Origin: a virus
Lineage: Duplodnaviria; Heunggongvirae; Uroviricota; Caudoviricetes
Length of the DNA: 64,000 nucleotides
Strand: one strand, 5' to 3'
Virus record (IMG/VR): IMGVR_UViG_2886837984_000001
Coordinates: 1-64,000 of that record
Position numbers and translations under genes: made by a program. Below the pieces are notes generated by a model. The model saw only the letters and a program-made list of their open reading frames with translations. It had not been told where the DNA came from and did not search any database. Shown in pieces: positions 1,927-58,074 of the stretch. The stretch's first letter is position 1, and every line of letters starts with the position of its first letter.

Positions 1927-3050
1927 CAGTTTTGTTATCGCATGGGCTTTTTATCCCTTGCTTCTACGCCTACATGGTCTCGGCGTAGCTCAGCATACAT
2001 CTTCACCCTCTAGGGGTGTCGGAGACTCGTGCCGGAATTATATTCTTCTTTGCGAAGGTTCATCCGGTATGCGTTACGATGCCGCCTGACTTTTAATCCA
2101 GGCGATTATCTCGGTATTGGGACATCAAACCATATCCTTTTACCGATATTCCCCGATCATAATCTCGGAGATTGCTCACCGAGACGGCGCCGGAAGATTA
2201 GCGTCGAAAAGTTCTTTCATGAACATAGCTTTCTTGAATTTTCTATCTAAGTGAATTTTCGAGTTGAAGTAATGAGCGTTTAAAAAACGAACAATATCTT
2301 CTCTTCTTGTAATCATTAGTTTATCGTTGTTTTTTCGTTTGGCATAAATACTCGATTTAATACCTAGCGAATCAAAATAAACTTTTAATTCGTTGAGAAC
2401 GACATCTTTATATCCCACGATTTCAACAGCGTAACGATACCGCTCATATCCCCGTTTATCTCTTCCGAACGACATATAAAGAGAACCATCTCCGTCAACA
2501 AATCCTCTAACGAAATGTTTCATCATCGCTGGGTTGATGCCGGTGAGACTCATCGCATATGTTTTGTTATGACCTATCCCGTAAGAAATTATGTCATTAC
2601 ATAATTCGGTTGAATGTATGATAATTTCGCAAGAAGGATATTCTTTACCATTAGACTTAGCTATTTTTTCTCTAACTGGAACATTAGCTTTGATGGCGTT
2701 TTTAAATTTCTCAAGATGACCCTTATCTTCGCCCTTTAAGGTTATTTTTAACGCCTTTGCCCCGGTCTTATCAATGATACAACCGTCTGCTGCGATAAAC
2801 CCTAACCAATACGACTTTTCTTCCGAGTCAATGACTTTAAAGAAATCTTTGTCATAATGATACCGAACAGTCATTCGAGAATATTTGGTATCGGTGATCC
2901 CCAAGGATTTGATTTTATGTCTCACGGATATTTTCGATCTGTTAAGAACGTCTCCGATTTCCTGAGCCGACATGTTTTTTGCATTTTCACTTAGATACAA
3001 TTCTTCTTCTTCAGTCCATTTTTTAACTTTTCGCATATATCTCCTTATTC
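1927..3050 (-). other. Group I-like intron 2 of terL. The homing-endonuclease ORF sits at its 5' end, followed by a structured core of about 250 nt.
   Basis: It lies between exon 2 (ends ...IAIVSG at 3051) and exon 3 (starts TKGQAK at 1926). The core at 1930 to 2175 is about 70% identical to intron 1 and shows compensatory hairpin changes. It ends ...AACAAAACUG followed by the exon. Confidence 0.55.
2176..3036 (-). CDS. LAGLIDADG-family homing endonuclease with two motifs and an N-terminal sigma-70 region-4-like HTH. It is encoded inside the intron.
   Basis: Motifs YWLGFIAADG and FVRGFVDGDGSL. The N-terminus EEEELYLSENAKNMSAQEIGDVLNRSKISVRHKIKSLG is HTH-like. It has its own RBS, AAGGAGATATATG. 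Confidence 0.85.
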   Translation of the reverse strand: MRKVKKWTEEEELYLSENAKNMSAQEIGDVLNRSKISVRHKIKSLGITDTKYSRMTVRYHYDKDFFKVIDSEEKSYWLGFIAADGCIIDKTGAKALKITLKGEDKGHLEKFKNAIKANVPVREKIAKSNGKEYPSCEIIIHSTELCNDIISYGIGHNKTYAMSLTGINPAMMKHFVRGFVDGDGSLYMSFGRDKRGYERYRYAVEIVGYKDVVLNELKVYFDSLGIKSSIYAKRKNNDKLMITRREDIVRFLNAHYFNSKIHLDRKFKKAMFMKELFDANLPAPSR

Positions 3051-3128: not shown

Positions 3129-3402
3129 CACTTTTGTTATCGCAAAGGCTTTTTATCCTCTGCTTCTATATCTACATGGTCTTGATATAGGTCAGCATAT
3201 ATTTTCTTCTCGTCTAGAGAAGCCAAGGACTCGTGGGCGTCACTATGTTCTGCCAAAGCAGTTTCAGACATGCCTATGCGTTACGATATCACTCATCTTT
3301 TAAAACGAATGATTATCTCGGTGTTGGGAACGTGCAATCCATATCCTTTCACCGATATTCCTCGGTTTTCCATACTAGATCGCTCTAATAGGGGGCGAAT
3401 CC
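3129..3402 (-). other. Group I-like intron 1 of terL, 274 nt and ORF-less. It is inserted inside the Walker A codons, between GLG and KS.
   Basis: The exon 1 frame hits a stop 6 codons into this segment. The segment is homologous to the core of intron 2 with covarying stems, for example CTACGCC...GGCGTAG versus CTATATC...GATATAG. The 5' splice site follows a U, with GCCC seven nt downstream to pair with GGGU. The 3' end is G. Confidence 0.6.
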
Positions 3403-3672
3403 ACCCAATCCCCTGGCCGCGATGAACGCGGTGATACTACTGTGGAACATCATATAAATCAAAATCATCTGGAACAGCTTTAAGTCGAGACCGAAATAAT
3501 CTTTGATGAAGCGGTGTGGGTTTGCTCGATAGAAAGAACCCCATACCAAAAGCCCTTCATTCAATCTGTCGGCCTTGTTTTTAGGAAGACCGTCTTTTCG
3601 CTGCTTCTTCTCGCGAGAGTATATGTTTCCTCCGCGCTTGTCTTTGTTTCTGTTGACTTGAAACGCACCCAT
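3403..3672 (-). CDS. terL: Terminase large subunit, exon 1. It is the N-terminal 90 aa, ending ...LFQMILIYMMFHSSITAFIAARGLG.
   Basis: The sequence aligns residue for residue with T4 gp17 [24 protein letters not shown], directly before GKT. Its ATG overlaps the stop of the upstream gene. Confidence 0.7.
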
Positions 3673-4532
3673 TACTTGTCACCATCCAAAACGGACTCGA
3701 TATCGTCGTTCTTCGAACGGAGGTCGAGCGCTCGTTGCATCTGGTTGGTGAACCATTTAGTCATGTATTTCTTGATCCCGTCCACATCCTCGAAGATGTC
3801 TAATGGCTCGGGGATAGGACGCTCGTTCTCGATCTTCTCCATAAACTGACCGAAAGTGGCCGTGGAATTCTCGTCAAAACCGGTCTCCTGGAGTGGTTTG
3901 ATACGGGCATCACCCATTTGGCTCGATGCCGTTCTTTGGAGTTTTTCGTACTCAGATACATTTCCGTTAAATAAAGCTTCGTCTGATTTATGCAATGTGA
4001 TCACATAGCTTCGATAAAGGTTTCTTTTGACCGGTGTATCCGCCTCGTAAGCACTCAACATCTCTTGATACATCGCTTCTAGTTTGATCTTCTCTGCCGA
4101 ACTGAAACCGACCCACCGAGTCTTACTTGCCTGGCTCAACTCGTCGTCATCTTCTGATTCGGGGAACTCCGAGTCGTCCCATGTAAGGTTCGACATGCTG
4201 CTGATGCTGATGGATTTGAAGTAGTTCCCTAAGACCGCTTTTCCTTCCGAGCTATTTTCTGCCGCAATCCACTTGTCTTCGATAAACGGTTTGTCCATCC
4301 GTCGAAGCGTGTCGTAGACCGATACCTGGCTCGTCTCGTCAAACTGGTCTAAAATACATGTTTTACAGGTCGGGAATAGGGCGTCAGAATGATACGGGTT
4401 GGAGGATTTATAGTATTCGCTATATTTCCTCTCCTCACCGCAACAGGTACACGTCTTCAGCGTCCCGTTCTTCACCTTGCTGCTCAGACCCTTGAATTTG
4501 TCTGTGTTGACCGGTCTTGCCATGTCTGTCAC
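3672..4532 (-). CDS. Hypothetical protein with an N-terminal Cys4 zinc ribbon. It is a positional candidate for the terminase small subunit.
   Basis: 286-aa ORF with a CTCCGE...CKTC motif. It lies immediately upstream of terL exon 1 and is translationally coupled to it. It has an acidic central region. Confidence 0.6.
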   Translation of the reverse strand: MTDMARPVNTDKFKGLSSKVKNGTLKTCTCCGEERKYSEYYKSSNPYHSDALFPTCKTCILDQFDETSQVSVYDTLRRMDKPFIEDKWIAAENSSEGKAVLGNYFKSISISSMSNLTWDDSEFPESEDDDELSQASKTRWVGFSSAEKIKLEAMYQEMLSAYEADTPVKRNLYRSYVITLHKSDEALFNGNVSEYEKLQRTASSQMGDARIKPLQETGFDENSTATFGQFMEKIENERPIPEPLDIFEDVDGIKKYMTKWFTNQMQRALDLRSKNDDIESVLDGDK

Positions 4533-4535
4533 TCC

Positions 4536-5726
4536 TTAATTGAAGCGCAGGTTATATGTACAGAGTCGTCCGAGTTCACGCTCCCACACCATGAATTTCT
4601 GATGGGGGATGCTTGTCGCCCGAATGTCTTTCGCAAATTCGTCCACACCCGAGAGTGTGCCGTTTTGAATGATGTCAACGCCGTGAACTTCTTTTTCGAA
4701 GTGGTGGTGTCGATGTCCAAGGAGAACGGCAGCCGGTTTTCGGCCGGTCATGAGCGTCAAGTTCTCGACCACGTTGTTCGGTCGATCCTTGTGACCATGA
4801 ACCCCGTACACTAAGTCTCCGCAAATGTTGATTTCACACAATTCTTCATCGATTTGATTCTCGTGGAACGTCACACGAGCGTTGTTCTCGAGACGTGCTT
4901 TCACGTACCAGTGGATGATATCCATGAAACTCTCAGAAGAGAGCGTCAAGTCTTTCTGTGGTGTGATGCGGTCGTGGTTGCCTCGCACACAGTAGTAGTC
5001 GATACTGAAGTGCTCGGATAGTTCGTTCACGACCTCGGCAAGCACCTCTCCGACACGCATTGTCTGAATCGATACGTTCTCCGTGTTTTCGATACGGATC
5101 GTCTGATGGATGAGTCCTGAAATCATGTCGCCCAATACGGCCACATGCAGACGCTCGATCCCGTTCTCGATCCCGTGTTGGATCACACGGTTCTTGAGGT
5201 AGGCGACCCGTTCGAAGAACACGTTGTTGTCGAACTTGTTCCATGCGTTGTTCGCATGTGTCCCGAAGTGCCAGTCCGAGAAGACCGTGAGACCTTCGCG
5301 TTCCGATACGACGGGAACAGAAAAGTCTTCTTGGATGAGCGGTTTGCTCTGTGCAAGAAGACGGATCTCATGAAGCATATTCGCTTTCATCTCTTCGACT
5401 CGAGCCTCGTCACGCACATAACCTTTGTAGATACGGCGTTGGTCTTGCACCCGAATCTTTTCTTTTTCGAGCTCACGACGTTTGATTTCGAGTTCTGCTG
5501 TCAGATCGTCAAACGATACCGACTTGTCTTCCGCATATCTCATACCTTCTTGGAAGGCCGCATATTTCTTGCGCCACTTCGACTCGCCGTGATCCTTGCC
5601 AAACTCTTCGTTCAAGATCTGTCCGACCTCTACCCAACTCAGACCGTATTGATCCTTGTTCGAGCAGATGCGGACGAAATAATCTTGTTCGGTCTCGTCG
5701 CTCAATCGTTTGATTTCAATCATCAT
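4536..5726 (-). CDS. Calcineurin-like metallophosphoesterase family protein.
   Basis: Motifs HVAVLGD, VRGNHD, GVHGHKD and LGHRHHH. The N-terminal 150 aa is an extra domain. Confidence 0.7.
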   Translation of the reverse strand: MMIEIKRLSDETEQDYFVRICSNKDQYGLSWVEVGQILNEEFGKDHGESKWRKKYAAFQEGMRYAEDKSVSFDDLTAELEIKRRELEKEKIRVQDQRRIYKGYVRDEARVEEMKANMLHEIRLLAQSKPLIQEDFSVPVVSEREGLTVFSDWHFGTHANNAWNKFDNNVFFERVAYLKNRVIQHGIENGIERLHVAVLGDMISGLIHQTIRIENTENVSIQTMRVGEVLAEVVNELSEHFSIDYYCVRGNHDRITPQKDLTLSSESFMDIIHWYVKARLENNARVTFHENQIDEELCEINICGDLVYGVHGHKDRPNNVVENLTLMTGRKPAAVLLGHRHHHFEKEVHGVDIIQNGTLSGVDEFAKDIRATSIPHQKFMVWERELGRLCTYNLRFN

Positions 5727-5920
5727 TAGTCCTCCGAATCTACTGGTTCAACGGTCGTTTTCTCGGTGATGCTGATGACGACTTCTGCGTCATGGAAACG
5801 TTTCAAGACTTCCATGAGGTCGTATTCGAACTCACCGGCTTTCGTGATTTCTGTGACGCGCATCGTGCCGACGTCCAATGATCCTTTAAGTGAAACCGAA
5901 TGTTTGATCTCTGCTGGCAT
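5726..5920 (-). CDS. Hypothetical small protein.
   Basis: ORF in an operon context. The start is more likely the internal ATG at 5920 (MPAEIKH...) than the TTG used by the ORF track. Confidence 0.4.
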   Translation of the reverse strand: MPAEIKHSVSLKGSLDVGTMRVTEITKAGEFEYDLMEVLKRFHDAEVVISITEKTTVEPVDSED

Positions 5921-5921
5921 C

Positions 5922-6083
5922 TCAGACCACCTCCGATTCAAAGGTGAAGTCTTCGACCTTTTCGAGCTCGTCTTTTACGATATCGAGTTGCTCTTTGATC
6001 TCCGTGTTGCATTTGTGACCGGCTTTCTGAAGCTCTGCAAGAACCTCAAGGAAGCGGAGTCGGTAGTTTAATTTTTCGTTCAT
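5922..6083 (-). CDS. Hypothetical small protein, 53 aa: MNEKLNYRLRFLEVLAELQK...
   Basis: ATG at 6083 with GGAGAG upstream. Its stop lies 1 nt before the ATG of the next gene. This is the first gene of the leftward operon. Confidence 0.35.
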   Translation of the reverse strand: MNEKLNYRLRFLEVLAELQKAGHKCNTEIKEQLDIVKDELEKVEDFTFESEVV

Positions 6084-6104
6084 CGTTCATCTCTCCGTTT
6101 CTAT

Positions 6105-6190
6105 GTATGTTCTAATGTTAGAATATATAAGTTCTATAATTAGAAGATTAATGTTCTAACGTTAGACTATTTATGTTCTAATGTTAGAAT
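6105..6190. promoter_or_regulatory. Array of four palindromic sites, TGTTCTAA-YG-TTAGAAT, spaced about 22 bp apart. A candidate operator array upstream of the leftward late operon.
   Basis: Three near-identical copies at about 6106, 6152 and 6174, plus a degenerate TTCTATAATTAGAA at about 6133. They are read directly from the sequence. Confidence 0.45.
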
Positions 6191-6200
6191 TTTGTTTGCA

Positions 6201-6247
6201 AAAAAAAGACTCGCCCTAGTCCGCATCGTTGATAGGCGTGGCGAGTT
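6201..6247 (-). terminator. Putative rho-independent terminator on the minus strand.
   Basis: GACTCGCC and GGCGAGT arms are followed on the minus strand by a U8 run (A8 on plus, 6200 to 6207). Confidence 0.35.
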
Positions 6248-6364
6248 CATGTCTAATTCAATTGCGGAGAGGTCTCCCTAACCGCTTTAGTCCGGGTGTG
6301 GTACAGGACTTTGCTCTGGTGTCGACGAATCGACATGATAGTAGAATCGAATGAAGGGGAGTTT

Positions 6365-6462
6365 GTTGGCCAGGTTTCCCACACCTCATTAGAGTTTTTT
6401 AGCCAGGTGTCTAATCACCTCTCGAATTTTATTTAGCCAGGTGTTTTGCCACCTCACGACAT
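6365..6462. promoter_or_regulatory. Three copies of TTAGCCAGGTGT-N5-6-CACCTC, an inverted repeat AGGTG/CACCT, at a spacing of about 31 bp.
   Basis: The copies sit at about 6369, 6401 and 6433. The palindromes GAGGGTTGACCCTC and GACGTC...GACGTC follow. Confidence 0.35.
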
Positions 6463-7114
6463 TCGATTCTAGAAAGGTGAGGGTTGACCCTCATGATAAA
6501 ATGGCGCCTTTATTGGACGTCAAAAATGAAAATATAACGCCTGAAACCAAAAGTGACGTCCCACGTAGTTGTGGCTTTTTCGTCAGGTTGCGAACCTGAT
6601 CCGGTGATAATTTGTCCGCAACGAGGCAGGACGATGTATGCACTCAATTGTGCGGTGCGCTAGGCACAAAATATAAAGACCCGACGAGGTTCGCTTCTAT
6701 GCTAGGCGTGTCGGGTTCCGGTAAATCAAATAAGACCCCAAAGGGTCGTGACAAATTTCTTTGCCACCAAATTGGTCTTTACAAATCAAATTTGCACCAC
6801 TTAAGGCGCGGGTTATCCAAATGAGGACACCCTCAATATAGAAGGCTCGAAGTGTTTCGCATATTCAGAGGCGTTTTCGAACTACTGTTCTAAAAAATAG
6901 ATGACGCCCCGTCTACGCCTTAGGGGGATAGCTTTCGTAGCATTGTTTTCCTTTTTTCAAAGCCGCTACGCCGGAGCAGGTTTCATCTCTAACCCGCTAG
7001 TTTTGAACACCCATTCGCCCACACAGCCTTTTGTCCGAAGTCTCGTTGACAGTCGATTGGATCGATACAAGATGACCTTCGGGGGTCTGAGTAGGAATTC
7101 TGGATGCCAAATTT

Positions 7115-7167
7115 GATAAAAACTCGGCTTACAGCCCGGGGAATGATAGACAGGCCGAGTTTTTATC
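7115..7167. terminator. Candidate bidirectional terminator hairpin.
   Basis: AAAAACTCGGC ... GCCGAGTTTTT stem, flanked by an A-run and a T-run. Confidence 0.4.
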
Positions 7168-7395
7168 AATAAATACGCTGTATTGTGTGTCTTCGCCTTG
7201 GCGGACAAGCAAATTAATCAGCGTTGACAGCCGTGGCTGTGAAGTAAAACGGGCCACTTAACTTGTTTTGAAGTTATCCTTCTAGCAAGCCACCTCTGGG
7301 ACTTTGTTGAGGTCTTTCCTCTAATGTTGAGTCTTCACGACTCACATATCCGAAGATACGCATCTTTAATGTGGTGCTGACTAATCAGCATGATA

Positions 7396-7668
7396 TTAGT
7401 TTTTGCAGCAACAAGGACTTTCGACTTTAAAACCTCTTGCTTTAACCCGCTCGGCTTGAATGTCGATAGGTTGATTTTTATTTTCTTCGAGATCTTTAAT
7501 GTGGTTTTCGAGTTCTGCAAGACGTTGCTTATATTCGCCTAAGTAATCTTTACGGTTTTGTAGCAACTCTTCCTGAAAATTAATCTCTGACTCTGTACTT
7601 CTAATTTCAGCATTAATACGTTTTGCTTCCCTTTGCAGAGTGCTAATCACGGCTTTCATCTTCATCAT
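7396..7668 (-). CDS. Hypothetical coiled-coil protein, 90 aa.
   Basis: It is the only sizeable ORF in the 2-kb non-coding hub and has a weak RBS. Its heptad-like content is charged. Confidence 0.35.
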   Translation of the reverse strand: MMKMKAVISTLQREAKRINAEIRSTESEINFQEELLQNRKDYLGEYKQRLAELENHIKDLEENKNQPIDIQAERVKARGFKVESPCCCKN

Positions 7669-8099
7669 CCTTTTCTCTTTTATTGGTTTTTAGCGCTCAA
7701 ATCAGCCTTTTCTAAGGCTAGAACTAAAAATAATCCGCGCACACCTATCTTTCAAGGCGGCGCAGATGTTGGTCGGTCAGTCCGACCTGCTTCGAAATCT
7801 ACCTAGCTAGGTTGCTGTCTTTCTGTTTTTAACGTGGAGCTCGGCTGCACCACTATTAAGTTGTGTGTGATCTTTGAGGGTGGCCGCGCGATAAGCACGA
7901 CCAATTCCCTTGTGATGCGGTATGAATAGTTGCCCGCTCTAACCGAACTCTGCGAGCCGTCTGCGCATGACAGTTTTCCTTGAGACGACGGATTTCCGAC
8001 CCAATGTCGTACTCTCCTCAGACACATAGCCCTACGCATCTGCGCCCATTCTCAAAAGTGGCTAATCCTTCGAGAATCGCGGTATGTATGATTTATGAT

Positions 8100-9350
8100 T
8101 TACAACTTGTTCGCAAACATCTTACATGTCTCAGAACGCTCATCTTGCGTGAGCACCACAATCGCACATTGCGGATCGCCTTTAAGTTTGTTCACGGCCT
8201 CGATGATGCCCGAAGATTTCACGAACGCATCGTTCGTTTGAGCGAAGTCGCCCGTAAAGACGATCTTCGAATCCTTGCCGACACGCGTACCACAGTTTCG
8301 AATTTCTTTTAAACTCAAATCCGAACACTCGTCCACCAAGATCAATGTCGAATCCATCGATAAGCCTTTGACAAAGCTGATTTCGTGTTTCGTGAGCTGT
8401 CCGTTCTCCGACATATGTACAGGGTCTTGGATAGGGTCGTCTAAATGTTGTACGAAAGTCTCGTAGAACACGCCCATCTTCTCGTCCATGTCGCCAGGTA
8501 GGAATCCGACGCTCGATACATCTGCTTTACGCATGAGTGCGATCCGACCAAAGTCGCCTTTTCGAATCGTTTTCTCTTGCGCCATCTTCACCGACATCAT
8601 CGTCTTGCCTGAGCCAGCCAATCCTAAGATGAATACCGATGTGATATCCGGGTTGTTCAAAGCATCCAACGCACAAGCTTGTTCGGCGTTACGCGGTTTG
8701 ACGACACGATATTCGGGGAGTTTGATTTCCACGAACGACTCGCCGTTCCAACGTCGCACCATCTCTTTGAATTTCTGTTGTGACGGGTCGTCGATGATAA
8801 CATATTGGTTGATCTCCAACTTCATCTCATCTGCCACCGTCTTGTCGTCCATCCATACTCGGTCGATCAACTCTGCTTCCACGTCATCGTTCGGGTCGAG
8901 TTTTGTATATCCCTTGTATGAATACACATCCGTCGACACTTGCTGAAGCTGTTTTACTTCGACTCCGAATCCATGCGCTTGAATCCCGAGCAACATATCT
9001 TCCGTAATCAATCCGTACTCAGGGTTTTGAAGCAGACACTCTAAGAATTGGTTGTCCACATACTGTTCATCATATTCGCCGTGTTCAAGTAGCTTGTTCA
9101 ATCGATAAGGTTTCGTGTTGTACTCGAGACGGTCTTGATGTAACGTCAACCAATGCTGTGCGACACGCGCACGATAGGCTAGGTCACTCGACCGTGACGA
9201 CTTGTGTTTCTCGATCTCTCGTAAAAGCATGGTCGTCACGACGACCTCATTCGGATTCAAGGCGCTGATGTTATTCAGCACCACATTCGTATCGACTACA
9301 AACTTCTTCATCTTCGTTTCGGTCGTCATCATGTTATCCCCGATCATCAT
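8100..9350 (-). CDS. phoH: PhoH-like ATPase with an N-terminal PIN domain, the PhoH2 or YlaK type.
   Basis: PIN motif KKFVVDTNVVL. PhoH Walker A GLAGSGKT and LILVDECS. Confidence 0.8.
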   Translation of the reverse strand: MMIGDNMMTTETKMKKFVVDTNVVLNNISALNPNEVVVTTMLLREIEKHKSSRSSDLAYRARVAQHWLTLHQDRLEYNTKPYRLNKLLEHGEYDEQYVDNQFLECLLQNPEYGLITEDMLLGIQAHGFGVEVKQLQQVSTDVYSYKGYTKLDPNDDVEAELIDRVWMDDKTVADEMKLEINQYVIIDDPSQQKFKEMVRRWNGESFVEIKLPEYRVVKPRNAEQACALDALNNPDITSVFILGLAGSGKTMMSVKMAQEKTIRKGDFGRIALMRKADVSSVGFLPGDMDEKMGVFYETFVQHLDDPIQDPVHMSENGQLTKHEISFVKGLSMDSTLILVDECSDLSLKEIRNCGTRVGKDSKIVFTGDFAQTNDAFVKSSGIIEAVNKLKGDPQCAIVVLTQDERSETCKMFANKL

Positions 9351-9363
9351 CGAATTTTCGTCG

Positions 9364-9654
9364 TCAGTTAAACTTGTCTTTCACCTTGTTTGAAGGTCTA
9401 AATGTAACCGTCTGTTTGTCTTGCGTCACCACGGGTTCTCTTGTCTTCGGGTTTCGTCGGATCGTGCCTTTTCGTGTCTTCACTTCGAACGTGCCGACCT
9501 CGGCAATCGTAATCTTCTCTGCTGTCTTCAGTTCTCTGAAGAGCGAGCGGAACACCGTGTTGATAATATCTGTCGTCGTCGGAATATCTGCGCCGATGTC
9601 TTTCGCCAAAATCTTGGCGAACTCGGAGCGGTTCATCGCTTTCTTTTTGCTCAT
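9364..9654 (-). CDS. HU/IHF-family histone-like DNA-binding protein, phage TF1-like.
   Basis: MNRSEFAKILAKDIG...GTFEVKTRKGTIRRNPKTREPV..FRPSNKVKD matches the HU fold signature. The likely start is the ATG at 9654, which has AGGATGG upstream. The ORF track begins 7 codons earlier. Confidence 0.75.
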   Translation of the reverse strand: MSKKKAMNRSEFAKILAKDIGADIPTTTDIINTVFRSLFRELKTAEKITIAEVGTFEVKTRKGTIRRNPKTREPVVTQDKQTVTFRPSNKVKDKFN

Positions 9655-9822
9655 CGTAATCATCCATCCTGTCATCGTTTAATAGAAGAAGAGAGACGTG
9701 CGTCCACATCTCTCTTCGGTTTTTATGTATGCGGTAAAATAATCATTTTACTTTTTTATTTAATACCCTTCATAACTAAGGGGGAGTTAGACAAGAAATA
9801 TTTCACATTTCCACCTAATCCC

Positions 9823-11274
9823 TTATGAATTCGAGCATTTCTTACAAATTGTTCGGAATCCGTCTTTTGAAGATGTGTTTTTCTGGAAATAACGGTCGTT
9901 AGAGATCAGCTTTGTCTCTCCGCACTTCGTACACGTCTTGTATTTTCCTTTGAGTTTGTGCGTGTACACATGCTCGTCGACCTCTTCAAGATACGTCTGA
10001 TGGACTTTCTTCGGAATCGAAGAGTTGACCATGCGGTTGATTACCACGGTCGACAACCCAAGCTTCTCGGCCACGGACGATTGTGTCTGCGCGTCGATCA
10101 GGAGCGAGCACACGTCACGCTCTTCCGTCGTGAGTGGTGCTTTGTCCAGGAGTCGCTTGAATTCCCATAAGAGCCAGTACCAATCAGACGTATAGTTCCC
10201 GTCGTACTTGTCCCATAGCTCGGCATACATCGTGAGGAGCGGTCGGTACGTCTTCAAGTCGCCAAGCGATATGGCGTTCGTAGACACCTCGACGATCTCA
10301 CCGTCTTCCTTCTCGTAATATGTATTCGAGTTGATGTCGTACACCGGTTTACCGGCGTCAGGGGAGAGTGTGACCGTCTTGACGAGTTGACGCTTCATGA
10401 TCTCGTACTCACCTTTGACGCTCGAGTACGTCTTCCGAAGAAGGTTGTACTGTCGCTCGGGCGTGAAGTGTTTCGGCAACTCCTTGCCCTCAGACTCCTT
10501 CTCGATCGCCTTGATCGTGTTCTGTCTGATGATGTCCTGCATATCCTTCGTCTCGTTCACGCCGAGATAGTAGCGCATGTAGTCGATGTCGCGCTTGAAG
10601 TCCTCGAACACCTCTTGCTGCGTCGTCACCTCGCCGTGGTAGAAAGGGATCTCGTTGCCTTTCTTGTATGTATCCCAATAGGCTTCATCAAGATACTCAT
10701 CCGCCAACTTGAAGGACGAACGCTTACGCTTCATATCCAACTTCTGTTCGCTCGTGAGCTGCGTCTTGCCTGTCGCCTCTAGGACGGAGAAGTCGTTCGT
10801 GAGGACTTCGTGAGCGGTATCCGTGACACGCTTCATATAGTCGTACTCACGGGGGCGCTTCTGGAACACATGGTCTGTGCTCTCTGACAGTGATTCTAAG
10901 AATGCACGTTCCTGCTCTTCGCTATCGAACTTCGTGAACAGGATGTAGTCCGCAAGCGTCGCGAGTGTCTTGTCTAGCGTCTGGTCTTCCGAAAGGAATG
11001 ATGACGCCTTCTTGTGCTCCTTGATGATCGTGCGTTCGGCCGACATGATGTCCTCGAGGAAGTCTACCTCTCCCAATAAAGAGGAGACGAGCTCGTTTCG
11101 CTCTTCCCCGTACTTCGAGAGGTAGTTTAGCTTCGAGTGGACGAGTTCGCGCAACGCCTGGATGTCGCCTCGTTCTTCGAACGGGCTGTCACCGAAACGC
11201 ATTCCCTCGAAACGCTTCGGCAGTTCCATCCCGTCGATGATGATCGTTTCTACTTCTTCACGCACGACCAGCAC
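9823..11274 (-). CDS. Putative transcription regulator. It has a sigma-70 region-4-like HTH near the C-terminus and a C-terminal Cys4 zinc ribbon.
   Basis: LTTEERDVCSLLIDAQTQSSVAEKLGLSTVVINRMV is sigma region-4-like. The zinc ribbon is CTKCGETK...CKKCSNS. Confidence 0.6.
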   Translation of the reverse strand: MLVVREEVETIIIDGMELPKRFEGMRFGDSPFEERGDIQALRELVHSKLNYLSKYGEERNELVSSLLGEVDFLEDIMSAERTIIKEHKKASSFLSEDQTLDKTLATLADYILFTKFDSEEQERAFLESLSESTDHVFQKRPREYDYMKRVTDTAHEVLTNDFSVLEATGKTQLTSEQKLDMKRKRSSFKLADEYLDEAYWDTYKKGNEIPFYHGEVTTQQEVFEDFKRDIDYMRYYLGVNETKDMQDIIRQNTIKAIEKESEGKELPKHFTPERQYNLLRKTYSSVKGEYEIMKRQLVKTVTLSPDAGKPVYDINSNTYYEKEDGEIVEVSTNAISLGDLKTYRPLLTMYAELWDKYDGNYTSDWYWLLWEFKRLLDKAPLTTEERDVCSLLIDAQTQSSVAEKLGLSTVVINRMVNSSIPKKVHQTYLEEVDEHVYTHKLKGKYKTCTKCGETKLISNDRYFQKNTSSKDGFRTICKKCSNS

Positions 11275-11461: not shown

Positions 11462-13836
11462 TTTGAATTATCTCCCTTAATACTTTTTGATTTCGTTAAT
11501 TTTTCTGAAATAAGTTCACCGAGCATCGTCTTCCGTTTGATGCTGCCGTCCCGTTTGACGCTACCGTTGATAGTGTAACCCGTACCGATGATGACGAGTC
11601 GTTCTCGTGCTCGCGTGATCGCCGTGTAGACGAGTTGGCGGTTTAACATATATGTATTCGACTTGTCGGCCACGAAGATGACCGCCTTGTTCGACGACCC
11701 TTGCATCTTATGGACAGTCATCGCGTACCCGAGAGAAGAGTTCTTGAAGAGCTTTCTTTCCCACGCATACGTAACGCCGTTGACGTCGATATAGAGCGTC
11801 TTCGAGTCAAGGTGGATACCGACGACCTTGCCGATCTCGCCATTAAAAAGTTTTGCTTTGTCTGCCGACTTTTCAAGTTTAGCCAGAGGCGGCATCGTCT
11901 TCTTCTTAATGATCTCTTGTGCTGTCAGTTCGCTGTCCGGTTGCTTTACAAACAAGATCTGCTGGAACGAGTGATACAGAAGGACATTGGGCGTGTTGTC
12001 TGTGATGAGTATCGGGTCTCCGATGCGATATGTATATCCGGCGAACTCGATCTCAGGTGAAATCGGATTGTGAGGGTTGAACTCGTTCTGAATCTCTTTG
12101 TTTAGTTCTTGGACGCCGATATCTCCTTTGTTCGTAGGGGAGATGACCGTGATGTCCGATAGGTCGATCTTTTCTGTCAGCTTCTTCATATAGACGATGA
12201 CGGCCTTCTTGATCTTTTCTTTCGACGTCTGATGGAAGATGGTGTCCGAGCCTAGCCGCGAAGCACCGTTGTTTTCAGACACGAGCTTCTGCTTCTGACG
12301 TGCTCTCGTGGCGAGATCTAAGATACCGCCTTCCGCTTGACGGAAGACCTTGGTGAGCTCGATCGTCTTGACACCGTTTTGCGTGAGGTCAAGGAGAACC
12401 TTTCCTGCTCCGACCGATGGTAGCTGCTCGGGGTCTCCGATAAAGACGAACCGTTTTGCGATCCCTTTGTTCTTCGCGATGTGATACATGATCTCTGTGT
12501 CGGTCATCGAAAACTCGTCTGCGACGAACACTTCTTCGTTGATCGCATAAGGTTCTTTATCGTCTTCCTCTGCCGTAAAATCCTCTTCTATGAAGGCGTC
12601 CGAATATTCGGCGTCCTTCTCGTCTTTGTCGACACCGATACCGAGCTTGCTGTGAAGCGTTCCTGCCTTGACCCCGGTATACTCTTGCAGGAGTTTCGCT
12701 GCACGTCCGGTAGGGGCTGTGAGCGTTACCGCCCATCCAGCGCTGTCGACCATCTGCACGAGCGCCTTCTGAAGCATCGATTTACCTGTTCCTGCGTATC
12801 CGAGCAGGCAGACGATGGTATGATCTTTTACCGCATAGAAGAACTTCTTCTGCTGTTCGGTGAACGTCACCTCGTTCTTTTTCTCGAACTGGACGATAAA
12901 CGCATCCACCTGCTCGTCGTTCAAAGGAAACTCGTCGACATCTCGGTTGACGTAGTCTGCGATAAACTCTGAGGTGAACGTCTCGCGGAAGTAGGTGTTT
13001 TGGAACGCCACCGTCTTACGCTCCTCGTCGATATGGATGTCGTTTCCGAGGTTGACTTCGTTGATCCGTGAGACGGGGATCGAGAGGAGGTCGAACATCT
13101 CGTCGATAAACGCCTTCTTACTCATATATGTAGAACCTGATTGTTCATTTTCTTTCGTTATGTATCGTGCGGCCGAAGTGATCCGATAGACGCTTTCTTC
13201 CGGCACACCCATCTTGAGGGCGATCGGGTCGACCGTCTTGAAGCCGAGTCCACGGAAGTTCGTGAGCACATATGGGTTGTCTGCGATGATCTCTAGCGCT
13301 CTATCTACGCTACCGTAACGTTTGAGGAGTTGTTCTCCCATCTGCGCGTTGACACCGAAGTTGGTGAGTTTGGCCGAGATGATCGCTCCGCCTTTTCGGT
13401 TCTTGACCTTGTTGACCAACGTATTGTAGTTCTTTCTGCCAAACCCTTTGACTTCCTCCCATCGGAGAGAGTCTGTCTCGACCTCTTTAAAGATATCGAA
13501 CGGCTTCTTGTAGACCTCCATAAACTCTTTGACCTGATTCTCGGTCAAGAAGAGACTCATGAGCGCCAGTTTTTCCTGCGGTGTCTGCGGACTTCGCTCC
13601 ACGAAGCTGATGGGCTCATATTGCTTGCCATACGTAGGGTGCGACGTCTCTTTGACATAGCATTCGACGACCATGCCCACTGAGAATTCCGGCATGTAAC
13701 CCTTTAGTGTCGCCCGGGTTCTCGTATCGACTTCCTTGGTTTGGTAGATATAGAAGCGTTTGTCGTCCGATACATAGCTGATCTTGGTGATTTCAAGTTG
13801 TTTTGTTTCTTGTTTCAATGAAAAATCTCCTCTCAA
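11458..13836 (-). CDS. RecD-like SF1B DNA helicase, RecD2 or Dda-type.
   Basis: Walker A LLGYAGTGKS. VFIGDPEQLPSVGAG and YAMTVHKMQGSS resemble helicase motifs. It has a long N-terminal extension. Confidence 0.8.
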   Translation of the reverse strand: MRGDFSLKQETKQLEITKISYVSDDKRFYIYQTKEVDTRTRATLKGYMPEFSVGMVVECYVKETSHPTYGKQYEPISFVERSPQTPQEKLALMSLFLTENQVKEFMEVYKKPFDIFKEVETDSLRWEEVKGFGRKNYNTLVNKVKNRKGGAIISAKLTNFGVNAQMGEQLLKRYGSVDRALEIIADNPYVLTNFRGLGFKTVDPIALKMGVPEESVYRITSAARYITKENEQSGSTYMSKKAFIDEMFDLLSIPVSRINEVNLGNDIHIDEERKTVAFQNTYFRETFTSEFIADYVNRDVDEFPLNDEQVDAFIVQFEKKNEVTFTEQQKKFFYAVKDHTIVCLLGYAGTGKSMLQKALVQMVDSAGWAVTLTAPTGRAAKLLQEYTGVKAGTLHSKLGIGVDKDEKDAEYSDAFIEEDFTAEEDDKEPYAINEEVFVADEFSMTDTEIMYHIAKNKGIAKRFVFIGDPEQLPSVGAGKVLLDLTQNGVKTIELTKVFRQAEGGILDLATRARQKQKLVSENNGASRLGSDTIFHQTSKEKIKKAVIVYMKKLTEKIDLSDITVISPTNKGDIGVQELNKEIQNEFNPHNPISPEIEFAGYTYRIGDPILITDNTPNVLLYHSFQQILFVKQPDSELTAQEIIKKKTMPPLAKLEKSADKAKLFNGEIGKVVGIHLDSKTLYIDVNGVTYAWERKLFKNSSLGYAMTVHKMQGSSNKAVIFVADKSNTYMLNRQLVYTAITRARERLVIIGTGYTINGSVKRDGSIKRKTMLGELISEKLTKSKSIKGDNSK

Positions 13837-32379: not shown

Positions 32380-32580
32380 TTATTTGTGAGTTTTGCGCGG
32401 TGTAATTTGATCCTTCAGACAATCGATAGTTGTCGTCTTCCAGAGTGGGCGGCCTTTATACGTATATGCGTCGGGCTCCGGCATATTATTTTGTGTGACA
32501 CGGTTCGAGATGGTGCTCCGCGAGATCTCTAGATAATCTGCAACTTCAGTGGTCGTTAAAAGAACTGTTTTATGGGTCAT
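32380..32580 (-). CDS. HTH DNA-binding protein of the excisionase or MerR-like HTH_17 type.
   Basis: The start is probably the ATG at 32580, which has CAAGGAGGCG upstream. HTH motif TTTEVADYLEISRSTISNRV. Confidence 0.6.
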   Translation of the reverse strand: MTHKTVLLTTTEVADYLEISRSTISNRVTQNNMPEPDAYTYKGRPLWKTTTIDCLKDQITPRKTHK

Positions 32581-32622
32581 AATTGACGCCTCCTTGAGTG
32601 GTTTGTAACTAAATAGTAACAC

Positions 32623-33240: not shown

Positions 33241-33816
33241 TTATAGGATTTTTTCAAACCCTTTTTCCGATTTCAGGTAAATGTTTTGTGAATTAGTAGA
33301 AATATAGATTTTTTCCAAGCTTTCGACCTTGCTTAGTACGGCGTCATACTGCTCGCTCGTCATCATCTGCATGATATCGATGATGTTTGATTTTCTATAT
33401 CCATCTTGATAGTGCTCGACCGTTTCCTTTCGCCAATACCTGCGCTTCGTATCGTAAAACTCGTATGCCGGGAATTTTTCCGAATCAACCAAGCGATTGA
33501 ACTGAGACGGGGAATTGTCTGTAAATTTGGCGGCCTCACTAGCAGACATGATCTCGAAGTCTCGAGAAGGGGCGTTCAGATCGATCACAACGTCCTCTCT
33601 TACATAGGATTTAGGTATCTGAGGATAGAGCGTGTCGTAACCCATCTCCTTTATGAACTTAGCCCATGTGCGAGGGGTCATATACCCCTGCTCAATGCCA
33701 TGATCGTCTAACCATTCGCTCAATTTCTCCTTTTTGAACAAGCAAGTTCTAAAGCGGAGGTCTTCGTCTACAAAACAATAGATGCGATTTTGATAGTTAA
33801 CTAGGTTCATCTTCAT
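33241..33816 (-). CDS. Hypothetical protein.
   Basis: 191-aa ORF. It is the first gene of the leftward block. Confidence 0.6.
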   Translation of the reverse strand: MKMNLVNYQNRIYCFVDEDLRFRTCLFKKEKLSEWLDDHGIEQGYMTPRTWAKFIKEMGYDTLYPQIPKSYVREDVVIDLNAPSRDFEIMSASEAAKFTDNSPSQFNRLVDSEKFPAYEFYDTKRRYWRKETVEHYQDGYRKSNIIDIMQMMTSEQYDAVLSKVESLEKIYISTNSQNIYLKSEKGFEKIL

Positions 33817-34143: not shown

Positions 34144-35370
34144 GTGGAGACGATGGTGAACGAAGATCTAACCCCGCAACGTTTAGCAGAAGTATTGCAA
34201 GATTTTCTGTACGAAAACCGTTATGATCATGATTTATTTAATGATTTACAAAAGAATTTGAAAAAACATGAAATATTTTCTAAAGATATTACAGATATTA
34301 TGAATAAAAGAACAGATTTCAAAGATATTCCTGCCACCGAGCTCGTGTTGTTTGCGCGGATTGTGTACGGCCGCTTTCCCGACTTCGAGATCATCAATCC
34401 GCAACGCTATTTCAAGCCAGGAGAGATCAAGGCGGCGCAATATTATACCCGCAACAATCGTCCTGAGTATATCAAACTTCCTTTGACAGTGAACAACGCA
34501 TTAAGCGTCCAGTACGACGAGTATATCGCCATCATGTCGGCCAAACAGCTCGTCAAGATGTTGGATAGCAGCATTGTCACCTACAACTTCGACTCACAGC
34601 GCGACGCGAAGAGCATGGTGGACACGAACGGAAGAATCGTGAGAGCGATCAACGTCAACCAAAAGTCGGTCATCGAGATCGCGCAACTGATGTTGAACGG
34701 AGAATATCTCCCCGATATGCTGACATTTAATATGTTGTTAGGTTCTAATGACGAAAGAGAAGAGTTTTCCTCTAAAGGAAACAGTATTGTCGTCAACGAA
34801 GGGACTCAGCTCGACATCTTGGACGGATTCCATCGTCTGTCTGCCATGCAGCAAGCGGTCGAAGCGAATCCAGAATTCGACTTAAACTTCCCTGTCGCCT
34901 TTAAAAACTTTGATATCCAAAAAGCGAAGCGCTATGTCGGTCAAACGAACACGTTTAACGTCATGCCTAAGGCGTATGTCGAGCAACTGAGAGCCAAAGA
35001 CCACTACGCATACATCGTCAACGAGCTCATCAACAACAGCGACCTGAAGGGGCGTGTGGGGTATCAGCGACGCCCAATCTTCGACAACGGAGAGATCACT
35101 ACGTTCGACCGTCTAAAGAATGCCATTCAGAAACAGTATAACGTCAAGATGAAACGAGAAGCGATGGGTGTGGTGGAGACACTTGTCCCGTTGTTCGATG
35201 AATTGATTTTCCTATACCTATCAGAGAAACCTGATCCACATGAAACATTGTTTGCTACGGTCGACGGGATAGATCGATTGTTAAATAAATATAAAAAGAT
35301 TGATAAAGATATAAAACGTGTCGATTTAGATTTCTTATTAGCCACAACAGAAAAAGGACAATTATTATGA
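34144..35370 (+). CDS. ParB/Srx-fold (ParB N-terminal domain-like) nuclease-domain protein.
   Basis: The LDILDGFHRLSAM motif is of the DGxHR type. 408 aa. RBS AAGAGGTGGAG. Confidence 0.5.
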   Translation: METMVNEDLTPQRLAEVLQDFLYENRYDHDLFNDLQKNLKKHEIFSKDITDIMNKRTDFKDIPATELVLFARIVYGRFPDFEIINPQRYFKPGEIKAAQYYTRNNRPEYIKLPLTVNNALSVQYDEYIAIMSAKQLVKMLDSSIVTYNFDSQRDAKSMVDTNGRIVRAINVNQKSVIEIAQLMLNGEYLPDMLTFNMLLGSNDEREEFSSKGNSIVVNEGTQLDILDGFHRLSAMQQAVEANPEFDLNFPVAFKNFDIQKAKRYVGQTNTFNVMPKAYVEQLRAKDHYAYIVNELINNSDLKGRVGYQRRPIFDNGEITTFDRLKNAIQKQYNVKMKREAMGVVETLVPLFDELIFLYLSEKPDPHETLFATVDGIDRLLNKYKKIDKDIKRVDLDFLLATTEKGQLL

Positions 35371-36431
35371 CAAACTTAGAGAATTTTGAAACCAATAAGC
35401 AAAAATTATTAGATGATGACCTATTTTATAATGCAGAATATAAATTAGATTTCTTAGACAAACATAAAACCAAAACACAGGATTTTAATTTTTACTATCG
35501 ATTATTTATCAACGTAAAAGAAAAAGAAGAAAGCCTTGGTCGTGATATGTACGACTTCTCTCGTCGTGATATCGAGGATGTCGTGTCGGGGATGCACCCG
35601 TCGACCTCTTCTGCTGCCGCCAAAATCATCGCAATGATCAAGCGATACCTGACTCACGCGGCACAAGACGGCGAAAAGAGTTCAAATATCGTTCACCAGG
35701 TAGGCAAATTGACAGATATGGCGAATAGTTTTCTTCCTAGTAATCCGAAATTCTATGTGTCAGAAGCAGAATTACAATTATTAGAAGATAGCTGTATGAA
35801 TCCGCAGGACGCATTTATCTTCCGGGCGATCTTCGAAGGGGTTTTGGGGGCTGAGATGACCGAGCTACGCAACCTAAAGATGAGCGATATCGATATCCAT
35901 CAAAATTTAGTCTCAATCAATATAGCTGATTACAACAAGAACCGGACAATCCGAGTGACAGAGCGATTTATTGATATGGCCGTAAAAGCATATGAACAGA
36001 AAGTATATATATTAAATAATGGCGAAGACGTCAGCGAGAACTTCATGCGCGCAAACACAGAATACGAGTTAGAAGATTCGGGATACATTATGAAGAAGTC
36101 GCATATTGGACGTATGATCAAGGATGCTCCGATTACGACGCCGACGCTATACAAACGATTTAATAACATCAAGGCGTTTCAATCATTCGAGACGATCGAT
36201 AAATATTACTTGAAATTCAACAACATTTATAAGAGCGGTGCGATCTGGTATGGGGCTCGTTATATAGAAGAAAAGCAGATAGCAATCAAGAAACTGACGG
36301 ACGATCATATGAAAGAGGTGGCTCGCCACGTCAAGAACGTCTATCAAGATCTCCCGGTAGATATCAAGAAGATCGTGAACGTTGAGAATATCGAAGAGTT
36401 ATATGTGGAAAAAGGGAAGATTATTTCGTAA
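35367..36431 (+). CDS. Hypothetical protein.
   Basis: 354-aa ORF, coupled to its neighbour. A weak tyrosine-recombinase-like box (LGAEMTELRNLKMSDID) lacks the catalytic Arg, so no product call is made. Confidence 0.55.
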   Translation: MTNLENFETNKQKLLDDDLFYNAEYKLDFLDKHKTKTQDFNFYYRLFINVKEKEESLGRDMYDFSRRDIEDVVSGMHPSTSSAAAKIIAMIKRYLTHAAQDGEKSSNIVHQVGKLTDMANSFLPSNPKFYVSEAELQLLEDSCMNPQDAFIFRAIFEGVLGAEMTELRNLKMSDIDIHQNLVSINIADYNKNRTIRVTERFIDMAVKAYEQKVYILNNGEDVSENFMRANTEYELEDSGYIMKKSHIGRMIKDAPITTPTLYKRFNNIKAFQSFETIDKYYLKFNNIYKSGAIWYGARYIEEKQIAIKKLTDDHMKEVARHVKNVYQDLPVDIKKIVNVENIEELYVEKGKIIS

Positions 36432-57563: not shown

Positions 57564-57628
57564 GTGTGACGGGCGCTGACGGAGGGTTGGCGCTTTATAA
57601 AAACTAACTTTTATAGGAGGTGAATTCA

Positions 57629-57799
57629 ATGGGGAGAAGAGTTTTGATTATTAAGACTGAGACGACTAAAAACGACCCCCTGGTCAAAAGGTTGATTGGA
57701 ACGATATGGCCTTCTTTTAAACTTAAAGGTGCAGATGTTGTTATTCCAACATGTGGTGGAATCGTCATTAAAGACGGCGAGTATGAGTTTGTAAAATAA
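57629..57799 (+). CDS. Hypothetical small protein, 56 aa.
   Basis: RBS TATAGGAGGTGAATTC. It is not in the ORF track. Confidence 0.45.
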   Translation: MGRRVLIIKTETTKNDPLVKRLIGTIWPSFKLKGADVVIPTCGGIVIKDGEYEFVK

Positions 57800-57825
57800 A
57801 AAGTGACATTTATAGGGGTGATAAA

Positions 57826-58074
57826 GTGAGAGTGGTTGATTATTTGATTGAGTTGTCACCGCAGTTAAAACGGAAGACACGGCTCGATATTTATCCGTTG
57901 TCTCTTGAAATTATTAATATCCGAGTAAAACGAAACATGTCGCAAGAAGAATTGGCAGATGATCTTGGTATTGAAGTGTCCGCTTTAGCAAAGTATGAAT
58001 TCGCTGATGAACAATATGGTATAGATGAGTATAAGATGTTTCTAGAAAGACTTAAATTATCCGAGAAAAAGTGA
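57826..58074 (+). CDS. XRE-family HTH DNA-binding protein.
   Basis: GTG start with ATAGGGGTGATAAA upstream. The HTH is MSQEELADDLGIEVSALAKYE. Confidence 0.5.
   Translation: MRVVDYLIELSPQLKRKTRLDIYPLSLEIINIRVKRNMSQEELADDLGIEVSALAKYEFADEQYGIDEYKMFLERLKLSEKK

Follow-up and report, generated by a model that had tools for sequence, protein, structure and literature searches.

Phased palindromes before the late operon of an SPbeta-like phage of Exiguobacterium as a putative operator of late transcription

Among the SPbeta-like phages, the switching-on of the late genes is known only for SPbeta itself, in which the late operon is transcribed by YonO, beginning ahead of yonK and of a non-coding RNA; the promoter sequence is undefined even in this phage (PMC5467207). 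How, then, is the late operon controlled in a relative that has no YonO? The question is raised by a 64,000-nucleotide stretch of the IMG/VR record IMGVR_UViG_2886837984_000001 (positions 1 to 64,000; hereafter, the window), which derives from an SPbeta-like phage of Exiguobacterium sp. SH5S4. The window carries an array of four phased palindromes directly upstream of the first gene of its leftward late operon. On balance, this array is likely to be a DNA operator, or an enhancer-like platform, to which a phage-encoded regulator of late transcription would bind with sequence specificity, as cooperative dimers. We infer the binding of a protein, its cooperativity, its placement on one face of the helix and its regulatory sign from the sequence of the array and of its counterparts in related phages.

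The palindrome array and its counterparts in related phages

The palindrome TTCTAA-N2-TTAGAA was located at positions 6110, 6132, 6154 and 6176, with start-to-start spacings of exactly 22, 22 and 22 bp. Read on the late (minus) strand, the unit is a 22-bp direct repeat consisting of A-TTCTAA-NN-TTAGAA-C and a 6-bp A/T spacer, with the 14-bp palindrome inside it. Two sites are perfect TTCTAA-TG-TTAGAA (TTCTAATGTTAGAA), i.e., the late-gene-proximal site 4 (6110-6123), with its centre 33 bp upstream of the ATG at 6083, and the distal site 1 (6176-6189), centred at -99. The arms of both are identical in the close relative L015. Each of the inner sites has one mismatch: site 3 (6132-6145, centre -55) reads TTCTAT-AA-TTAGAA (TTCTATAATTAGAA), and its counterpart in L015, TTCTAT-TT-TTAGGA, is more degenerate, while site 2 (6154-6167, centre -77) reads TTCTAA-CG-TTAGAC (TTCTAACGTTAGAC) and corresponds to a degenerate TACTAA-AT-ATAGAA in L015. 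A hairpin with a T8 tail and the ribosome-binding site (RBS) of the first late gene enclose the array, which takes up the roughly 125 bp between them. This RBS, GGAGAG (6091-6096, minus strand), was read from the sequence, lies 7 nt before the ATG at 6083 and is conserved in L015. The original prediction, which had placed four phased palindromes at the head of the leftward packaging operon and quoted three of them as 17-mers, was correct in the sites, the spacing and the position.

The phased pattern GTTCTA-N3-TTAGA-N8-GTTCTA-N3-TTAGA gave three matches in the array and none in 100 dinucleotide-preserving shuffles. The lone palindrome, at up to two mismatches, was not enriched over the window (9 found versus 5.8 expected). 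Since lone palindromes are not enriched and phased pairs are absent from the shuffles, the signal lies in the clustering and the phasing. Outside the array, the sole site with one mismatch or less in the window is 7710-7723. L015 lacks this site, which in the window overlaps with a small, unrelated hairpin, and we took it as a chance match rather than a true second site. It was also rejected as an autoregulatory site of the 90-amino-acid (aa) open reading frame (ORF) at 7396-7668, which encodes a coiled-coil protein without a DNA-binding signature. The view that the palindromes are not a Bacillus LexA (Cheo) box holds as well: GAAC-N4-GTTC had no match with one mismatch or less in 6100-6200, and its window-wide count was at the chance level (38 versus 34.7). 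One perfect box of this type was seen in the leader at 6879-6890, some 700 bp before the array, within a stretch that is conserved with the relative L007, where the box has one mismatch.

Syntenic relatives were reached via homologues of YonJ, of the 53-aa product of the first late gene and of a 483-aa protein encoded upstream of the array; locus searches seeded with the YonJ homologue returned no relatives from viral or genome contigs. An array was present at the same place in seven independent syntenic relatives, phased at 22 or 21 bp. All relatives keep the order of a T-run hairpin, the array, the RBS and the orthologous first late gene, with about four sites. The motif itself, however, is replaced from one group to another. 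Type 1 comprises the window and L015, whose YonJ proteins are 95% identical, with four A-TTCTAA-NN-TTAGAA-C sites at 22 bp. In L015, the sites are centred as in the window, the outer arms are invariant, the central dinucleotides are changed and the inner sites are weaker. Type 2, found in L005/L006 and L024, has four sites of AAC(C/T)TA-N2-TA(G/A)GTT at 22 bp, and the two proximal centres in L005 are at -48 and -26 before the ATG. Three type-2 units are left in L003/L004 beside a TnpB insertion, which lies upstream of unit 2. Type 3, found in L016/L017, L020 and L021, has xxCTAA-A-TTAGxx at 21 bp, with ATTAG cores at -133, -109, -88, -67 and -24; L021 is without one type-3 unit. Type 4 is represented by L007 (YonJ 63% identical), in which the repeats are larger, more complex and not regularly phased, and an extra gene comes after them. 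The best palindromes of types 1 and 2 are the outer sites, and the inner sites often retain a single half-site. The flanking proteins are 85-95% identical across array types while the motif differs. When folded as RNA, the type-1 arrays scored z -3.4 to -4.7 against shuffles, significant at a z of about -4.6, and types 2 and 3 scored z -1.1 to -2.0, which is not significant.

The layout is thus kept while the sequence is replaced, which points to selection on a DNA-protein interaction with changing specificity, and not on the sequence or an RNA fold. Likewise, the conserved arms, the free spacers and the retained half-sites agree with protein contacts better than with base pairing. The turnover of the motif amid conserved flanks suggests the pattern expected if the specificities of operator and regulator change together. 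The platform for a dimeric regulator that had been proposed for this locus therefore stands as the best-supported explanation, from the position, the roughly four sites, the phasing of 21-22 bp, the replaced motif and the lack of a conserved RNA fold.

According to this explanation, regulator dimers would fill some 90 bp of DNA cooperatively, within the interval from the terminator-like hairpin at the end of the non-coding leader to the first late RBS. The spacing of two helical turns would set all of the dimers on one face of the DNA, the strong outer sites would nucleate the binding, and the weaker inner sites would then fill in. The bound dimers would decide the transcription of the packaging and structural operon. 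We favour activation, or recruitment to a non-canonical late promoter, as the sign of the regulation; repression or a roadblock is nearly as compatible with the layout.

Some further observations were made on the arrays. A scan of viral contigs with the exact phased pattern gave zero matches, and scans with the short palindromes were swamped by single chance matches, L209 (IMGVR_UViG_3300021256_002689) excepted. This contig carries, in non-coding DNA at 713-768, three perfect tandem 21-bp repeats, each with the type-2 palindrome AACCTAAATAGGTT. It is apparently unrelated, and the repeats may represent the same DNA-binding specificity reused elsewhere, or a coincidence. The complex array of L007 (6850-7030) is partly built from a GGTAATA unit that it has in common with repeats of the distant L029, where GGTAATAC/GTATTACC repeats at 7570-7700 precede a ParM-like (ALP_N) gene and resemble a parC centromere. 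Insertions of IS605-family TnpB elements are recurrent, being found in L003/L004 and L018/L019 (both at the array), in L006 (after YonJ) and in L025. The recovery of 119-123-kb contigs from three samples points to phage genomes that are complete and possibly extrachromosomal.

Genes, promoters and structured leader around the array

The YonJ homologue of the window is 100% identical to an NCBI protein of Exiguobacterium sp. SH5S4, encoded on a 121-kb contig. Nucleotide similarity to deposited phages was not found for the window, and neither tRNAs nor Rfam families at gathering score were detected in it. The gene set downstream of the array is the SPbeta late module, encoded on the minus strand. 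The first gene (5922-6083) encodes a 53-aa helical protein of phrog_29480, with no assigned function. It is followed by a YonK homologue (5726-5941; Pfam YonK), a YonJ-like metallophosphoesterase/exonuclease (4536-5726; Pfam YonJ_N) and a YonG-like protein (3672-4532; Pfam YonG_N). The solved YonK structure (2h4o) is without functional annotation. The large terminase (TerL) is split into a 95-aa N-terminal and a 471-aa C-terminal piece with about 1.5 kb between them (493-1908, 2176-3036 and 3385-3672, minus strand). The gap carries an ORF for a LAGLIDADG homing endonuclease and is probably an intron; L007 and L024 are arranged differently. Upstream of the array and in the same direction lie the genes for a RecD2-like helicase, a 67-aa ORF, the 483-aa protein (9823-11274), an HU-like protein (9364-9675) and a PIN-PhoH protein (8100-9350). 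The gap from PhoH to the array is a leader of about 2 kb, mostly non-coding and structured, with a single credible ORF. The ORFs 7803-8039 and 6966-7208 would yield implausible proteins. This structured leader, the terminator-like hairpin that precedes the array and the lack of a late-strand promoter of the sigma-A type, as described below, were all missed in the original prediction.

No sigma-A-type promoter on the late strand within the array passed our scan, and the A/T-rich hexamers in the array, considered as a late-strand sigma-A promoter, are not conserved between the array types. On the plus strand, sites 2 and 1 supply a sigma-A-like match with an extended -10 at 6163-6190, TAGACT-16 bp-TG-T-TAGAAT (TAGACT-16-TGTTAGAAT), which points away from the late genes and into the antisense of the hairpin and the leader. 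We rejected it as a real promoter, because such matches are within chance (one found, 2.8 expected) and types 2 and 3 do not conserve it. A different element, a TTGACA...AAATCAAAAAGTAT...-10 motif with at least 10 copies within one mismatch, is common to the other transcription units of the window and is absent from the array. The copies include those at 11480 (minus strand), 13874, 13909, 16864, 20773, 33835, 36486 and 39452; they are intergenic and lie between TTGACA-like and TATAAT-like hexamers. They have the appearance of early promoters that form one family and share an operator, comparable to the SPBRE of SPbeta. An MrpR (YopR)-like protein is encoded at 35367-36431 (PF22822, 8e-16), and the AAATCAAAAAGTAT motif is probably the target of this putative repressor. 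With the shared motif absent from the array and no sigma-A promoter found there, the late operon appears to be controlled differently. One copy of the motif (11467-11510, minus strand) lies directly upstream of the genes for the 67-aa and 483-aa proteins. This copy suggests that the 483-aa gene, our candidate switch gene, is under the general early/repressor control of the phage.

The upstream border of the array is a terminator-like element on the minus strand at 6200-6246, in which a hairpin (6209-6246) with the stem ACTCGCC/GGCGAGT and a conserved 23-nt loop is followed by the T8 run. Against the Rfam abiF RNA (RF03085), it scored 31 bits over the full model length (E=0.002), which is below the gathering score of 37. 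The stems covary across seven loci and the loop is invariant. The conserved loop sequence is ACGCCTATCAACGATGCGGAC, and a second, more diverged copy of the hairpin was found at about 6676-6718 on the minus strand. Hairpins with this loop were also seen in L015, L016/L017 (two copies each), L005, L020, L021, L024, L007, L010 and L011. In L010 and L011, which are unrelated metagenomic phage contigs of 38% and 52% GC, the 20-nt loop is 100% identical, the stems are different and covarying, and the hairpins likewise lie just upstream of a late or terminase-like gene. A scan of genome contigs with the loop sequence gave a single match, in a Variovorax coding region, which we attribute to chance. 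RNAs with the abiF motif act as antitoxins against AbiF toxins, and two such motifs are present in RCd22 (PMC12373285). No abiF/Abi_2 gene was seen adjoining the hairpins of the window, so the loop hairpins may be phage-borne antitoxin decoys expressed with the late leader.

Other structured elements were noticed in these leaders. DUF3800-I and DUF3800-VIII RNAs, above the Rfam gathering scores, are present in L007 at 6444-6566, in the leader between PhoH/HU and the first late gene, and in L002 (SPbetaL6) at 8209-8274, just upstream of yonK. The late-operon leaders of SPbeta-like phages thus seem to accumulate structured RNAs associated with defence genes, and the 'unannotated non-coding RNA' that has been described before yonK in SPbeta may be of this DUF3800 type. 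The leader of the window also contains three tandem units at 6359-6470 with a spacing of 33-34 nt (TTAGCCAGGTGT...CACCTC), each with a possible small AGGTG/CACCT hairpin. They resemble repeat-type RNA antitoxins in form, and their only Rfam match was at the noise level (IMES-2, 12 bits).

A candidate regulator and the competing explanations

The best candidate for the binder of the array is the 483-aa protein (9823-11274, minus strand). It has a C-terminal helix-turn-helix (HTH) of the sigma-region-4/LuxR-GerE-like kind at about residues 380-425 and a CxxC...CxxC zinc ribbon. The HTH matches the profiles of sigma region 4 and GerE/LuxR weakly (E 0.02-0.06), and Foldseek with the C-terminus gave probabilities of 0.9-0.99 to DesR, EsrB, GerE and sigma-4 domains, but with E values above 0.7. 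The AF2 model is confident only at residues ~340-483. The protein is annotated as phrog_5767 'sigma factor' (4e-59), and likewise in GenBank, which is a label only: in a check for sigma-70 features, the region-4-like HTH alone was detected, no Pfam sigma domains were found, and the N-terminal 340 residues were of low confidence. The gene order is helicase, 67 aa, 483 aa, HU, PhoH, leader and late genes in the window, and an 860-aa YonO/RNA-dependent RNA polymerase (RdRP)-like protein, HU, PhoH and YonK in L013. In the phages of the Exiguobacterium group, the 483-aa protein therefore takes the slot that YonO holds in the SPbeta-type relatives. Because it holds this position of the late RNA polymerase of SPbeta, we propose that it would act as the late switch. 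It was also considered as a diverged YonO, which is unsupported, as no RdRP or DPBB match was found.

The HTH is where this protein varies. Among five close homologues, residues 401-412 form its most variable 12-residue window (0.43 versus 0.77 overall). Across array types, the HTH segment is 41-50% identical, against 95% between the two type-1 phages and 75-80% for the rest of the protein. The 53-aa protein, YonK and the YonG-like protein were rejected as specificity determinants, being nearly identical between type-2 and type-3 phages. HTH dimers of the LuxR/GerE class typically bind inverted repeats of the 7-2-7 type. All four sites of the array are 6-N2-6 and, on one side, extendable to 7-2-7; the spacer is N2 in type 2 as well and N1 in type 3. 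Three regions had been put forward as sources of the regulator in the original prediction. That at 9823-11274 gained from its HTH class, its YonO slot and its HTH variability, whereas, for the other two, the ORF at 32380-32622 gave sub-threshold HTH_17/CI matches and the ORF at 57626-57880 matched no family. Taking these results together, we name the 483-aa protein as the binder tentatively and at less than even confidence.

Several points weigh against this assignment or against the operator itself. The model of the 483-aa protein is poor overall (predicted local distance difference test, pLDDT, 60.7; predicted template modelling score, pTM, 0.30) and has no significant fold match, which leaves 'sigma factor' as a PHROG label rather than a function. 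Genuine sigma region 4 domains contact the -35 element as monomers and do not bind a palindrome. The arrays of L016 and L021 are both of type 3 and very similar, yet their HTH segments clearly differ, and the HTH segments of the near-identical homologues P0133 (L016) and P0135 are only 45% identical. The correlation between HTH and array is imperfect and confounded by phylogeny, and the comparison covered stretches of 20 kb, beyond which the gene of the true regulator may lie. Among the distant carriers of the 483-aa family, Mammaliicoccus phi127 and L029 are without a comparable array, and Geobacillus E3 has irregular repeats only. In L018/L019, a TnpB element stands in place of the array and the RBS GGAG is changed to GCAG; either the phage can do without the array or, more probably, these copies are defective. 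Finally, the proximal centre lies only 33 bp before the ATG (26 bp in L005), a distance that is typical of repression more than of upstream activation.

This last point bears directly on a repressor or roadblock array, in which dimers or tetramers of another phage HTH protein, encoded elsewhere and for example of the Xre/SinR-like or HTH_17 type, would coat the region and occlude the late promoter and the read-through from upstream until the late phase or induction. Given how close to the RBS the sites at -55 and -33 (-48 and -26 in L005) are centred, any core promoter, start site or 5' untranslated region must lie beneath them. Moreover, the upstream genes for HU and PhoH and the leader are co-directional, with only hairpins between, and HTH candidates at sub-threshold scores are present at 32380-32622 and 33241-33816. 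The outer bases GTTCT-N6-AGAAC resemble the inverted-repeat operator of SinR. However, no protein of the Xre/SinR type was detected in the ~70 ORFs scanned, and a general lysogeny repressor is expected at several promoters, whereas the palindrome occurs only at the array and the dispersed promoter motif, the probable MrpR-like target, differs from it in sequence. We therefore regard a repressor of this kind as rather unlikely. Improbable to a greater degree is a pac site, where the small terminase (TerS) or the YonG-like protein would bind the phased repeats and start headful packaging. The pac/cosB regions of SPP1, lambda and P1 are phased short repeats, the YonG-like and TerL genes are located about 1.5 kb downstream of the array, and a lineage-specific turnover of sequence is also expected of a pac/TerS pair. 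Against this, palindromes suit dimers better than the ring-shaped oligomers of TerS, the tight packing against the RBS suggests a control of expression, and type-2 and type-3 phages have almost the same YonG-like protein, down to its N-terminal zinc-finger region. In addition, the pac of SPbeta is located elsewhere than at yonK, having been mapped between yonR and yonP, upstream of yonO (bioRxiv 10.1101/2021.11.22.469490).

The three remaining explanations have little credit with us. In one, an initiator or a ParR/ParB-like protein would bind four dyad-symmetric 22-bp iterons of a replication origin or plasmid-type centromere. The number, dyad symmetry and spacing of the sites resemble the four iterons of the lambda ori, A/T-rich flanks are present, and the GGTAATAC repeats before the ParM-like gene of L029 have GGTAATA in common with the L007 array. 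We nevertheless consider such a function very improbable: the genes for the Sak4-like ATPase, DnaB-like helicase, primase and RecJ lie 30-39 kb away (36.5-45 kb) on the other strand, the cumulative GC skew has no inflection at 6.1 kb and its minimum near 33-34 kb, no initiator or partition gene adjoins the array or was found in the window, and the fixed position against the late-operon RBS in all relatives is left unexplained. An equally slim chance is given to an RNA element, i.e., an array transcribed in the late leader that folds, as separate hairpins or a single long one, to control the stability, processing or translation of the first late genes. The type-1 arrays do fold much better than shuffles and the surrounding leader is rich in structured RNAs, but repeated palindromes fold well automatically, the type-2 and type-3 arrays fold no better than shuffles, and the array has no Rfam match above noise. 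The degenerate inner sites retain one half-site and not the pairing, single palindromes yield only 5-bp A/U-rich stems, and the predicted fold leaves out the RBS. A functionless tandem duplication of a chance-palindromic 22-bp unit is hardly credible. The units are direct repeats in A/T-rich intergenic DNA, which is prone to slippage; their divergence, however, is non-random, with the outer arms kept and the centres free, and the layout is kept in at least four sequence-unrelated versions across the relatives.

Comparison with known systems and implications

The regulator platform that we favour has partial counterparts in known systems. The locus resembles the start of the late operon of SPbeta in standing at the head of a yonK-yonJ-yonG-terminase operon, with a long non-coding leader and with HU and PhoH upstream (Forrest et al. 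2017, PMC5467207). In both phages, a dedicated phage factor encoded just upstream would switch the operon on, this role being a proposal for the 483-aa protein. Unlike SPbeta, neither the window nor its syntenic slot contains YonO, and a 483-aa HTH/zinc-ribbon protein is found instead; SPbetaL6, conversely, has no phased palindromes before yonK. The MrpR (YopR)/SPBRE system of SPbeta belongs to the same phage group, and the window has both an MrpR-like protein and a dispersed promoter motif. The binding peaks of MrpR in SPbeta lie at the promoter of yonP, upstream of yonO, and not at yonK (PMC10516654). The palindromes differ from SPBRE, single sites of which lie over about ten early promoters, by forming one cluster at one locus with an unrelated sequence.

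The operators of the NarL/GerE/LuxR class, inverted heptamers to which a dimer of four-helix HTH domains binds, are similar in sequence layout, since (A)TTCTAA-N2-TTAGAA(C) is a 6/7-2-6/7 inverted repeat close to the 7-2-7 rule, and the C-terminal HTH of the candidate matches that class as well as sigma region 4. In contrast to the proteins of this class, the candidate has no receiver domain and has a long unique N-terminus and a zinc ribbon, and its putative sites are four and phased, not one or two. In Gram-positive siphophages, late activators of the RinA/LtrC/ArpU superfamily, whose sites lie upstream of terS, and Alt of TP901-1, which binds repeats upstream of the late promoter, also have their repeats directly before the packaging/lysis operon. 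No homologue of them was found among the ORFs scanned, and the present sites differ in reaching within ~20 bp of the RBS and in being palindromes phased by two helical turns. The likeness to the lambda ori iterons, which are bound by the O protein, consists of four dyad-symmetric repeats with a pitch of ~22 bp and adjoining A/T-rich DNA. Unlike the lambda ori, the array is neither in nor beside a replication gene, shows no GC-skew inflection and is fixed in position relative to the RBS.

The locus offers a compact, testable control element and a concrete candidate factor in a lineage that is related to SPbeta and lacks YonO. The relatives provide natural 'swap' variants, in the form of three or four palindrome types in phages that are otherwise 85-95% identical. 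The point of interest is that the layout is conserved while the motif, and perhaps the recognition helix of the regulator, diversify; an operator platform is in itself classical in kind. If the link between the array and the 483-aa protein is false, the array is still a clean example of a conserved operator layout with sequence turnover. If the link is true, a phage RNA polymerase would have been exchanged, as a module, for a DNA-binding switch, and late operator and regulator would have diversified together. A more speculative extension, to which we assign a low probability, is that in the YonO-less branch of SPbeta-like phages the late RNA polymerase was replaced by a ~480-aa HTH/zinc-ribbon switch that docks as cooperative dimers on four sites spaced by 21-22 bp, and that the platform and the recognition helix co-diversify into orthogonal 'late-specificity types'. 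Such types would be, for late-gene activation, analogous to immunity types, and they might protect against being cross-activated or hijacked by co-resident phages and satellites.

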